Source of the DNA: Methanothrix sp.
Lineage (GTDB): Archaea; Halobacteriota; Methanosarcinia; Methanotrichales; Methanotrichaceae
Assembly (NCBI GenBank): GCA_963682135.1
Contig: OY821645.1
Coordinates: 608,001-672,000, forward strand
Length of the DNA stretch: 64,000 bases
Direction: 5' to 3'
Numbering within the stretch: position 1 is the first letter of the stretch; every line of letters starts with the position of its first letter. The translations under genes were made by a program, and so were the position numbers. Under the pieces are notes generated by a model. That model ran no database searches. It worked only from the letters and a program-made list of their open reading frames with translations, and was not told the DNA's origin. Positions 48,549 through 50,897 of the stretch are shown one piece after another.

Positions 48549-49100
48549 CTATCCGCCATTCCTTTTTATTTCATCCATAAACTTGTTCCATTTTTTCGCC
48601 TGGTCAACCTTTCGCCTGATCAGGTCCTCTGCGCCGTATTCTGTCAGTGTGCCATGTTCTCTCTTCTTTAGGATATCCTTGAGATCCAAAAGGGCTCTAA
48701 TTATGCTGGCAGCTTCATCGTGAAGCTCTACTGCCTGTTTTAGGTTCAGCTTTGCCGCCTTGAGATCTTCCTCGTCTTTCTTCTCCTTCTTATCCAATAT
48801 CTCGATCAACTCGTTAATCTGCAGCCGCTCTTCATCTGTTATCTCCTTCTCGTTGATCAATCTCCAGATGAGGCGATGCAGATCAACTCGACCCTGTCCG
48901 GCATGAATTTCGGGCGGCAGATCCTTTTCCGTCTGATGATACTTTTCCATCTCGCTTCGGAGATCATTGCCGTCTATCTGCATCTGCTCCGGTTCTGTAG
49001 CTCCTACCCATACCAAGAAATGATGAAGACTGGCCAGCAGTTTTGTTCGTTCCGCCTCTGTCAGATAATCAGTAATGTCCTTTTTTTCAATTTCAGACAT
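48549..49100 (-). CDS. Conserved euryarchaeal coiled-coil protein (DUF5788-like)
   Basis: ERTKLLASLH..WVGA..P pattern, helical C-terminus. Confidence 0.65.
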   Translation of the reverse strand: MSEIEKKDITDYLTEAERTKLLASLHHFLVWVGATEPEQMQIDGNDLRSEMEKYHQTEKDLPPEIHAGQGRVDLHRLIWRLINEKEITDEERLQINELIEILDKKEKKDEEDLKAAKLNLKQAVELHDEAASIIRALLDLKDILKKREHGTLTEYGAEDLIRRKVDQAKKWNKFMDEIKRNGG

Positions 49101-49287
49101 GAATCCTCTTCGAATCGTTTTGCATTTATCTTCGGCCCTGAGATCATGCCGGCTCGCCAGAAGCGTTTTGGCGATGCTGCGCGGCGGGATGCAACGCCAA
49201 TCGAACGCGGTCAATTGGTTGTCTATCTACCTGACCATTATGCGCAATACTTGAGGTCATCTCCGAGGCCTTTTTTTGCATTGGGCG

Positions 49288-49303
49288 GCAAAAGTTTTAT
49301 AGC
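49288..49303 (+). promoter_or_regulatory. BRE/TATA promoter of leuA (probably a leaderless transcript)
   Basis: GCAAAAG-TTTTATAG about 23-30 nt before ATG 49325. Confidence 0.6.
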
Positions 49304-49324
49304 TATGGATGCTATCCTTGATCT

Positions 49325-50897
49325 ATGACACACGAAACCTCTGTGGGGAATCGTCTTCTACGACGTTCGTTCGCTTGTTGATGAAAAAGTCCGCATTTTT
49401 GACACGACTCTTAGGGATGGCGAGCAGACTCCCGGCGTATCACTCAATTTGGACGATAAGCTCAAGATCGCAAGGCAGCTTGATAAACTCGGTGTGAATG
49501 TTATCGAGGCTGGTTTTCCCGTATCCTCCAAAGGCGAGTTTGACAGCGTCCGGCAGATTGCCAGAGAGGGCTTGCAAGCCCAGGTCTGCGGCCTCTCTCG
49601 CATTGTGAAAAAGGATGCTCAGGCATGTCTTGATGCCGATGTGGGCATGGTGCATGTCTTCGTCCCTACCTCCGACATCCAGATAGCTCATACTATTAAG
49701 AAGAGCCATGATGAGATTGTGGCCGGAGCAATGGAGACTGTGCAGTTTGTCAAGGACAACGGCAGAACATGTCTCTTCTCTGCCATGGATGCCACCCGCA
49801 CCTCGCCGGAGTTCTTGCATCGCATCTTCAAGGCAGTGGAAGAAGTGCACTGCGATATAATCAATATCCCGGACACGGTAGGAGTAGCAGCTCCATCTGC
49901 TTTCTACCGTTTTGTCAAGGATATCTGCGATGATGTGGATATGGTAGTTGATGTGCACTGCCACAACGACTTCGGTCTGGCTGTGGCTAACAGCCTGGCG
50001 GCAGTCGAGGCAGGAGCCAGAGAGGTCCAGGTCTGCGTAAACGGACTGGGCGAGAGAGCTGGCAACGCCAACCTGGCCGAGACAGTGATGAGCTTGCATG
50101 CCATTTATGGTGCTCGCACCAGCATAAAGACGGAATACCTGGTGGAGACAGGCCGCATGGTAGAGCGGCTCACCGGGGTTAAGATTCCCATAACCGCACC
50201 CATCATAGGCGATAATGCCTTCTCCCATGAGAGCGGCATTCACAGCCACGGAGTTATCGAGAACAGCAAGACCTTTGAGCCAGGCATCATGACACCGGAG
50301 ATGGTAGGCCACAAGAGACGCATAGTCATGGGCAAGCACACGGGACGGCACGCTGTGGCCAAGGTGTTGGAGGAAGGGGGCTACCTGCCCACGGAAGAGC
50401 AGCTCCAGGAAATCCTGGAGAGGATCAAAGAGCTGGGCGACAAAGGAAAGCAGATTGCCAATATCGATCTTCAAGCCATTGCCGATGTGGTGATAGGAGA
50501 AGTGGCCAAAGGCAGTCAGGCTGTGATTCTCAAAGAGGTCTCAGTCATGACCGGCAACATCATCACCCCCACAGCAACCGTAAAGGCCCTGGTACGAGGT
50601 AAAGAGAAAGTTCTCGCCCATATCGGCGTGGGGCCGGTGGATGCCGCCGTAAATGCCGTGCAGGGCCTCCTGGAAAGCGATACATCAATTCACCTCTGCG
50701 ACTTTCGAATTGAGGCCATTAGCGGCGGGGCCGATGCCCTGGCGGAAGTGGTGATTGGCGTAGAGGACGACCGGGGACGCAAGGTCAGCGCCAGATCGGC
50801 ACGCGAGGATATAGTCATGGCTTCAGTGGAGGCTCTGGTCAGCGCCATAAACCGTTTGATGCTCCTCAATGACGCAGCAGAACGCAAGAAGGCTTGA
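49325..50897 (+). CDS. leuA: 2-isopropylmalate synthase; the 5' end needs recoding or a non-canonical start
   Basis: [14 protein letters not shown] (from 49395) in frame with ORF 49449..50897; IEAGFP, PDTVG, HCHND, GERAGN, HESGIH, regulatory domain GVGPVDA. Confidence 0.88.

Follow-up and report, generated by a model that had tools for sequence, protein, structure and literature searches.

A candidate leucine-sensing +1 frameshift at the start of leuA in Methanothrix, with an isoleucine counterpart in cimA

Bacterial release factor 2, the product of prfB, is controlled by an autoregulatory +1 frameshift at CUU_UGA_C, with a Shine–Dalgarno (SD)-like stimulator upstream. Bacterial leu and ilv operons are regulated by leader-peptide attenuation, and the E. 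coli leader leuL uses rare CUA codons. In Archaea, we know of no established amino-acid-responsive control of translation elongation. Here, we analyze the start region of leuA, the gene for the probable 2-isopropylmalate synthase (LeuA) of Methanothrix, in a 64,000-nucleotide (nt) stretch of a Methanothrix sp. genome (assembly GCA_963682135.1, contig OY821645.1, positions 608,001 to 672,000 of the forward strand; the whole stretch is termed the window and is numbered from its first letter). A short upstream open reading frame (uORF) overlaps the beginning of leuA in a different frame. With somewhat more confidence than doubt, we propose that leuA is expressed by programmed +1 ribosomal frameshifting at CUU_C within this uORF, probably triggered by the hungry Leu codon CUA.

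The yeast Ty1 +1 frameshift occurs at CUU_AGG_C (reviewed in PMC5009743). For Archaea, the available sections of the 2021 review of recoding (PMC8211752) describe a single −1 case from a cellular gene (fucA1), cases from viruses and a suspected one in Mg-chelatase. Frameshifting of leuA or of the citramalate synthase gene cimA is unmentioned in the available sections of these two reviews and of the GeneTack survey (PMC3711429), and the available main text of a Methanosarcina mazei ribosome profiling (Ribo-seq) study contains no mention of leuA, citramalate synthase or frameshifting (PMC11456600). For the gene family itself, the passages available from Pfeiffer and Dyall-Smith (2021; PMC8305020) describe a set of orthologues of Haloferax volcanii leuA2 (HVO_1510) without canonical starts, report leuA2 peptides that map ahead of the first canonical Met, and speculate on slippage and on translation only in the absence of leucine. 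That set belongs to the same gene family as the window leuA and has the same start-less conserved N-terminal region. The paper treats it as a matter of annotation in 16 haloarchaeal genomes, and the main-text passages give no shift site, sensor codon, cimA counterpart or case outside Halobacteria. The slippage idea is already in print, as a speculation for Halobacteria; a shift site, a sensor codon, an isoleucine twin and a spread to methanogens and Bathyarchaeia were not found in the portions of the literature searched, supplements apart.

The anatomy of the leuA start is established. The leuA frame (frame 0) is closed by TGA 49326–28, and this upstream closure was confirmed in the sequence. 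The 24 frame-0 codons from 49329 to 49400 contain no ATG, GTG or TTG ahead of the DTTLRDGEQ motif (49401–27), and the earliest canonical-start open frame begins at TTG 49449, already 3′ of that motif. The chance of such a start-free stretch is estimated at ∼0.3, so that it is not rare alone, and its significance rests on its conservation and not on its length. The ATG at 49325, placed 22 nt from the TATA box TTTATAG (49296–302), opens an 18-codon uORF that stops at 49379–81. The uORF frame lies one base behind leuA, so that a +1 shift is required to enter leuA from it. Its only Leu codons are the adjacent CTT (49355–57) and CTA (49358–60), and in-silico translation that reads CTTC as a single step yields an open frame into leuA. 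The sequence-only reading of this stretch had described the closed and start-free frame, the ATG at leaderless distance from the TATA box with its 18-codon frame, and the adjacent Leu codons, and all of its coordinates hold. An additional out-of-frame ATG (49381–83) was absent from that reading; it shares bases with the uORF stop (TGATG), and A5G comes after it. The 522-codon leuA frame is intact and specifies a full-length synthase of the LeuA family, with the Pfam domains PF00682 (HMGL-like), PF22617 (HCS_D2, post-HMGL) and PF08502 (LeuA_dimer) and a score of 694.7 bits with NCBIfam NF002085 (cut-off 517).

This layout has what is expected of a +1 site: overlapping open frames with a start-less downstream frame, a re-pairable P-site codon, and an arrangement that was kept and not repaired by an indel. 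It resembles prfB in that a P-site CUU would re-pair one base forward, in the purine-rich element complementary to the 16S tail that lies just 5′, and in its negative-feedback logic. In contrast to prfB, the slow codon is a sense codon and not a stop, and would sense aminoacyl-tRNA and not a release factor; moreover, a tiny, putatively leaderless uORF would be joined to a whole enzyme, the system is archaeal, and SD-like pairing is weak in the window. With Ty1 it shares a seven-base site, a P-site CUU, a sense codon that would be hungry for want of an abundant tRNA, and the lack of need for a large downstream structure. Ty1 sets a fixed Gag:Pol ratio, whereas the putative hungry codon of leuA specifies the very amino acid that the pathway of the shifted frame produces, which implies regulation. 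The likeness to leu/ilv attenuation lies in a short leader peptide with end-product codons, in which a rare Leu codon would sense tRNA charging; the differences are that one or two codons would be regulatory here and that the response would consist in a switch of frame instead of continued transcription and would need no transcription–translation coupling. The comparison supports the assignment of the putative leuA module to programmed +1 frameshifting, of a kind that would combine prfB-type logic with a hungry sense codon as in Ty1.

The conservation of this anatomy is likewise a matter of observation. Among 27 LeuA orthologues collected by protein search from 30 relatives and this genome, 26/27 carry an ATG-initiated uORF that lies one base behind and encodes ...(D/N)R(L/F)L..., and 20/27 have no in-frame ATG, GTG or TTG between the frame-0 stop and the DTT codons. 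A nucleotide pattern (ATCGNYTTNTW, then 15–45 bases, then the DTTLRDG codons), with the reversed pattern as control, was present in 57/58 genomes of the genus, in 331/392 genomes of the class (217/231 of those of high quality; reversed control, 0) and in 149/401 genomes of a phylum sample. The pattern-found loci, 165 distinct ones (104 LeuA type and 61 CimA type), overstate the conservation of several core positions, because the pattern itself forced them. The uORF ATG is present in 104/104 LeuA-type loci, and 46/104 lack any canonical start in frame. That a +1 shift is needed, as the sequence-only reading argued from a single locus, gains support from this comparison, and the out-of-frame ATG with an NTT–Leu module occurs in Methanosarcinales, Methanomicrobiales and Halobacteria, the groups in which that reading had suggested looking for it.

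Among the matches listed from a scan of all species genomes are Methanosarcinales, Methanoperedens, Methanomicrobiales, Bathyarchaeia and Hecatellales. Lineages missed by the strict pattern mostly have variants of the uORF (DCLL-stop, NCLL-stop, NRFLRP-stop, YCLLHR-stop, NCFLC-stop and GHLLF...). The variant of Halobacteria has a uORF encoding (G/D)RVLPGH over frame-0 (V/I)EFFQGT, and three of the four haloarchaeal genomes sampled lack a canonical leuA start and are overlapped there by an out-of-frame ATG frame. Ordinary starts without a uORF were found in a few lineages (loci L018, L192, L199, L208 and L209). The L192 gene, which has an ordinary ATG (MSMNYRNEELRDK, MSMNYRNEELRDKFVRIF), matches its uORF-bearing relatives (...|YRTEKLRDVRVRIF) from exactly the post-shift Tyr onward. 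Also among the matches listed are L075, L078 and L146, labelled as Calditrichaeota, Krumholzibacteriaceae and Caldisericota metagenome-assembled genomes, whose leaders are of archaeal type (MTDRFIH-stop, MGYRFIR-stop and a Methanothrix-type uORF); these are probably mis-binned archaeal contigs.

The start signals appear to address the uORF and not the leuA frame. In the LeuA type (102 loci), TATA-like motifs peak at −41 to −27 from the uORF ATG and an SD-like sequence occurs in 15/102, a spacing and scarcity that indicate a leaderless or near-leaderless mRNA. In the CimA type, TATA motifs lie at −50 to −42, and 36/56 loci have an SD-like sequence ahead of the uORF ATG. Frame-specific constraint is observed further downstream: from the uORF stop to the DTT codons, the changes that separate nearest relatives are silent in the leuA frame versus the uORF frame in 115 vs. 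51 cases, and further counts past the uORF stop are 40 vs. 15 and 31 vs. 7. This excess indicates that the leuA frame is translated there, ahead of any canonical start.

Translation of that region could also begin within the leuA frame itself, at CTG 49338, at ATC 49350 or at another near-cognate codon, with no frameshift and with the uORF as a regulatory leader peptide, the translation of which, or its stalling at Leu codons, would tune access to that start. We consider such non-canonical initiation unlikely, while giving it real weight. Genus members retain the in-frame CTG as YTG, and it is among the options given by the Haloferax authors in the available passages of PMC8305020, and some public records begin MWGIVFY, at CTG 49338, or MFDTT. 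The ATC is invariant in the core, but no spacer separates it from the SD-like GGG, and in a leaderless mRNA its place would be ∼25 nt from the 5′ end; in the 30/104 loci, of other genera, in which frame 0 opens just one codon before it, with a stop (TGA) directly before GGG ATC, it would be the sole possible start. Frame-0 GIVFY is conserved, a change of ATC to ATT is silent in frame 0, and a genuine in-frame ATG stands just 5′ of GI(V)FY in several lineages (30/104); on the other side, no near-cognate codon is conserved from the uORF stop to DTT, and initiation in frame 0 does not account for the pyrimidine (Y) that ends the Val/Ala codon, for the lack of TTT and GTT among the sensors or for the free third base of CGN.

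Frameshifting within the uORF would have to take place in the overlap of the two open frames, which is as short as ∼8 codons. The uORF ends 1–3 codons past the Leu (sensor) codon in 61/104 LeuA-type loci. The NTT and Leu codons are always inside the overlap, and NTT is the sole codon there able to re-pair one base forward in every lineage; in the lineages with an 'MTDRFI' uORF, TTT is the only slippery codon in the overlap. Across relatives the conserved core reads RAT-CGN-NTT-(Leu codon)-Y, which in the window gives CTT_C and then CTA. At positions −5, −3 and −2 relative to ATCG, which the pattern did not force, G is present in 71/71, 69/71 and 70/71 loci; a purine (R) occupies position −1, and a pyrimidine (Y) follows the sensor. 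The P-site codon is YTT in all 104 LeuA-type loci (in part forced by the pattern), with at least 6 changes between TTT and CTT on the tree. The orthologues collected by protein search have YTT_Y as well wherever they carry the motif, and Halobacteria have GTT_CTT at the position of the window CTT_CTA. The third base of CGN is free, with at least 10 and 8 changes on the tree; these keep Arg in the uORF, and the frame-0 residue becomes Val, Ala or Asp.

The sensor codon of the LeuA-type loci is TTA in 50, CTA in 30 and CTT in 24 of the 104. It changed at least 4 times on the tree, each time among Leu codons, and the sensors TTT, GTA, GTT and ATA, all permitted by the pattern, occur in none of the 165 loci. 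A TTT (Phe) sensor is found in 0/24 loci with third-base T, despite its silence in frame 0, and neighbouring silent sites vary. The sensor retains its amino acid identity and not its letters. The placement of the shift at CTT_CTA, as the sequence-only reading had it, is supported by the constant presence of NTT and a Leu codon in the short overlap and by sensor changes that stay within Leu. Neither frame alone explains the core, so that part of it is probably a signal at the RNA level.

A +1 shift could instead take place inside the uORF at the upstream GGG_A (49346–49), an alternative already named in the sequence-only reading, in which case GIVFY would be translated and the downstream Leu codons would be irrelevant to the shift. 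This is very unlikely. NGG-R is conserved, as the counts at −3 and −2 indicate, and a shift there would account for the conserved frame-0 GI(V/A)FY; AGG_G and GGG_G permit re-pairing, but TGG_G re-pairs poorly, and the CimA-type 'MTDRFI' lineages have ACA GAT at this place, with no re-pairable codon. The Leu or Ile identity of the later codon and the Y before TT would be left unexplained.

Two further elements accompany the proposed CUU_C shift. The 16S 3′ tail of this genome is CUGGAUCACCUCCU, and the complementarity of the core to the tail averages −9.1 kcal/mol, compared with −5.15 kcal/mol in coding controls; 39% of core windows, vs. 5% of controls, reach −10 kcal/mol or lower. The pairing segment, G-N-GG-R-AUC (49343–49352 in the window), typically reaches −11.5 kcal/mol with one bulge across the 165 loci. 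In several lineages, that of the window among them, ATCGNY and RNCGAT form a 6-bp hairpin whose hexaloop contains the shift site. Pairing is found in 67.1% of cells vs. 63.1 ± 0.8% after shuffling (0/500 shuffles reach the observed value), double-sided changes in 37 cells vs. 16.3 expected, and slid registers used as control are paired in 12.8–54.1%. Covariation at two of the pairs in Methanosarcinaceae, Methanothrix and Methanoregulaceae is modest and above controls. The hairpin is absent in Methanoperedens and two other families.

The rarity of the sensor codon is observed directly. CTA and TTA, at 6.6 and 6.8 per 1000, are the rarest Leu codons of this genome and each make up 7% of Leu codons; the rarest Arg codon is CGT (4.6 per 1000). 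There are single genes for tRNA-Leu(UAG), tRNA-Leu(UAA) and tRNA-Leu(GAG), and re-pairing of tRNA-Leu(GAG) from CUU to UUC would be feasible, with one G-U and two Watson–Crick pairs. Among the 44 tRNAs called by ARAGORN are an odd Ile(AAT) and an odd Phe(AAA), which are probably intron-containing genes or false calls.

The following course is inferred, from the transcription start to the slip, its place and its reliance on charged Leu-tRNA. Transcription would start ∼22–27 nt past the TATA box and would give a leaderless mRNA with the AUG of 49325, which opens the uORF, at its 5′ end. Ribosomes would translate the uORF until CUU (49355–57) occupies the P site, with the next codon, CUA, a rare Leu codon, read by the single tRNA-Leu(UAG). 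On arrival of charged tRNA-Leu, the ribosome would continue and terminate 7 codons later, and LeuA would not be made. With the A site empty, peptidyl-tRNA-Leu(GAG) would slip +1 from CUU to UUC, Tyr-tRNA would then read UAC (49359–61), and translation would proceed into leuA. Leucine shortage would in this way induce the enzyme of the first committed step towards leucine.

A paralogue of 507 codons, 45% identical to the window LeuA, lies outside the window on the minus strand (G000:C1:693566-695038; locus L031, 693566-695066), and is one of three leuA-family genes of this genome; the third has 396 codons. NCBIfam models do not separate the window LeuA from this paralogue, and source names, which are annotations and not assays, give 2-isopropylmalate synthase for the window-type clusters and D-/(R)-citramalate synthase for the cluster of the paralogue. 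This cimA also has a uORF module: a whole-genome scan for the module gave 5 hits, two of them convincing (leuA and cimA) and three chance-like. At L031, an SD sequence (GAGGGTGAT) is accompanied by two ATGs four bases apart, one opening the uORF MNAWDRFIW-stop and the other, in frame, MRGIDLFGK..., and the sensor region reads TTT ATT. This gene may combine basal initiation with an isoleucine-dependent shift.

In the CimA type the sensor is ATT (Ile) in 61/61 loci; a GTT sensor was found in none of these 61, although the corresponding change of TTA to TTG is silent in frame 0. The distance from the sensor to DTT is 13–14 codons in the LeuA type and 7–11 codons in the CimA type. By similarity of the downstream protein, with the own-genome paralogue as reference, a Leu sensor goes with a LeuA-like protein in 99/99 loci and an Ile sensor with a CimA-like protein in 56/56; 10 of the 165 loci were too short and were dropped. 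The module (D/N/Y)-(R/C/H)-(NUU)-(end-product codon) would be ancient, with a Leu codon in LeuA and AUU in CimA, of the isoleucine pathway. These comparisons raise the possibility, which we advance tentatively and at less than even confidence, of an ancient family of amino-acid-sensing recoding switches in more than one archaeal phylum, in which LeuA and CimA would be made mainly by a +1 slip from a uORF of 6–20 codons when the charged end-product tRNA is lacking. Two CimA-type genes, L197 and L198 (genera g35 and g45), have neither a standard module nor a clear start; their leaders have GGGATTCGC... and GAT TAT ATT ATT, the latter with two Ile codons, and may be degenerate or variant sensors.

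Besides the forced core positions and the records that begin at CTG 49338, several observations weigh against the frameshift proposal. The trans-frame LeuA protein is a prediction; the closest observation is the proteomics statement on Haloferax leuA2 in PMC8305020, which is indirect. Substitutions favour neither frame 5′ of the shift site (49 vs. 47) or between the sensor and the uORF stop (23 vs. 26). The frame-0 peptide GI(V/A)FY is itself conserved, and ATC changed to ATT in two genera, which is silent in frame 0 and turns Arg into Cys in the uORF; against a reading on the uORF side alone, a synonymous GAC-type change of ATC was never seen. Complementarity to the 16S tail, enriched overall, is weak in the window itself (−6.7 kcal/mol), and we treat an SD-like stimulator at the core as a lead. 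Re-pairing would be poor for UUU to UUA (CimA type) and for GUU to UUC (Halobacteria). The match of Leu and Ile sensors with LeuA and CimA corresponds to a single change on the tree and counts as one event, not as repeated evidence. An in-frame ATG is present in 32/104 LeuA-type loci and a canonical start upstream of ATC in 30/104; in-frame starts in 3/15 genus members (CAC ATG AAA), in Methanosarcina (MQNKK...) and in Methanoregula (MLRGIVFF) suggest that ordinary initiation may operate in those lineages. RNA contigs from one run gave no cover of 49150–49381, which says nothing on transcription or on the 5′ end.

The layout is not an assembly error. The sequence-only reading had named a 1-nt assembly error as an outcome that would undo it, and this was not borne out: an isolate-type run contains the entire 601-base stretch in a single contig with 0 differences, and two metagenomes, rich in strain variants, have zero indels between 49318 and 49400. 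In metagenome contigs of relatives, similarity to the window begins at 49323–25, the position of the uORF ATG, and is lost just upstream. One relative (G012:C3, locus L002) has two single-base insertions compared with the window, one in the leader and one inside the LRDG codons; these are likely sequencing errors of the long-read indel type. They count in favour of the start-less frame being an artefact, or a decaying gene whose function a paralogue had taken over, but the identical frame layout in 57/58 genus genomes, the concordant independent run and metagenomes, and the undamaged 522-codon frame with its three domains leave this reading with a negligible probability. A natural one-base-shorter, in-frame form was found in 0/188 genomes (at least 95% complete), which is neutral as to mechanism. 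RNA polymerase slippage is unlikely in this genus, because CTTCTAC has no homopolymer run.

The additional ATG at 49381 offers a further route into leuA, by termination at the uORF stop (49379–81), reinitiation at this ATG and a −1 slip on AAA_AAG. The window has both the TGATG overlap and an A_AAG-like, −1-prone run, and the product would resemble an ordinary LeuA N-terminus. Yet ATG or GTG is present in 13/15 genus members and A5G in just 8/15, both are absent in L015, L016 and other genera, and variation at the site fits frame-0 coding of D/N-E-K/R, so that we hold this route to be highly improbable. A homopolymer error at ATG 49381 and the A5 run is excluded: relatives do not keep this arrangement, and separate assemblies and runs are in agreement.

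The sequence-only reading had also mentioned an RNA motif upstream of haloarchaeal leuA. The motif exists (Rfam RF03001, leuA-Halobacteria), and like the window leader it is a candidate cis-regulator upstream of a leuA-family gene; it is, however, a different element, of other sequence and other structure, in front of a different paralogue. RF03001 gave no match in the window (49100–49600) at E up to 10 (threshold 47.9 bits), in 12 uORF-bearing loci or in the haloarchaeal uORF loci L200–L203. Its only match, at 73.3 bits, was in L205 (L205:1364-1416), a third haloarchaeal leuA-family paralogue without the uORF module. No known RNA family in Rfam matched the window leader or the 12 related loci.

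The features of the leuA start region are collected in Table 1. Upstream, leuA is flanked by a gene for a DUF5788 protein and downstream by a gene for a xanthine/uracil-type permease, both on the minus strand; these neighbours are unrelated and divergent or convergent, so that leuA stands alone behind its own promoter.

Table 1. Features of the leuA start region, in window coordinates
Feature	Position	Strand	Basis
Promoter, with B-recognition element (BRE)-like purine-rich AAAAG and TATA box TTTATAG (49296–302)	49290..49302	+	kept in genus relatives
uORF, putatively leaderless, 18 codons and TGA	49325..49381	+	ATG-initiated uORF conserved in relatives
TGA stop of frame 0, lying inside the uORF start (ATGA)	49326..49328	+	sequence
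5′ core G-N-GG-R-ATCG-N, here GGGGAATCGT	49345..49354	+	unforced G positions conserved
uORF codons within the 5′ core, GGG AAT CGT (G-N-R); CGT, putative E-site codon	49345..49354	+	
Proposed shift site CTT_C, P-site CUU (Leu, tRNA-Leu GAG) to UUC	49355..49358	+	YTT conserved; re-pairing inferred
Proposed A-site sensor codon CTA (Leu)	49358..49360	+	codon rarity; always Leu across loci
Small hairpin ATCGTC / loop TTCTAC / GACGTT, shift site in loop	49350..49367	+	5/6 pairs here
leuA frame after the proposed shift (TAC GAC ... TGA 50895–97)	49359..50897	+	domains, DTTLRDGEQ 49401–27
Out-of-frame ATG at the uORF stop (TGATG), then AAAAAG	49381..49389	+	judged incidental

The starts of leuA and cimA are often mis-annotated in euryarchaea, as the sequence-only reading had stated. 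Among the public records P0002–P0121, 79/120 listed homologues lack the N-terminal catalytic motif DTTLRDGEQ, some of them being contig-end fragments. In the records without the motif, gene callers picked internal starts; other records begin at CTG, ATT or similar codons.

If the tentative family of LeuA and CimA switches is real, it would give Archaea their first case of a cellular +1 frameshift under regulation, and an archaeal counterpart of bacterial attenuation that acts on a leaderless mRNA and without transcription–translation coupling. If +1 frameshifting at CUU_C is true, a simple switch of ∼7 bases and a short uORF would report tRNA charging directly. It would also explain the chronic mis-annotation of leuA and cimA starts, and gene models would be corrected in hundreds of methanogen genomes. 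The leuA and cimA modules would then form a natural pair of Leu and Ile sensors for comparison in tractable hosts such as Methanosarcina and Haloferax.

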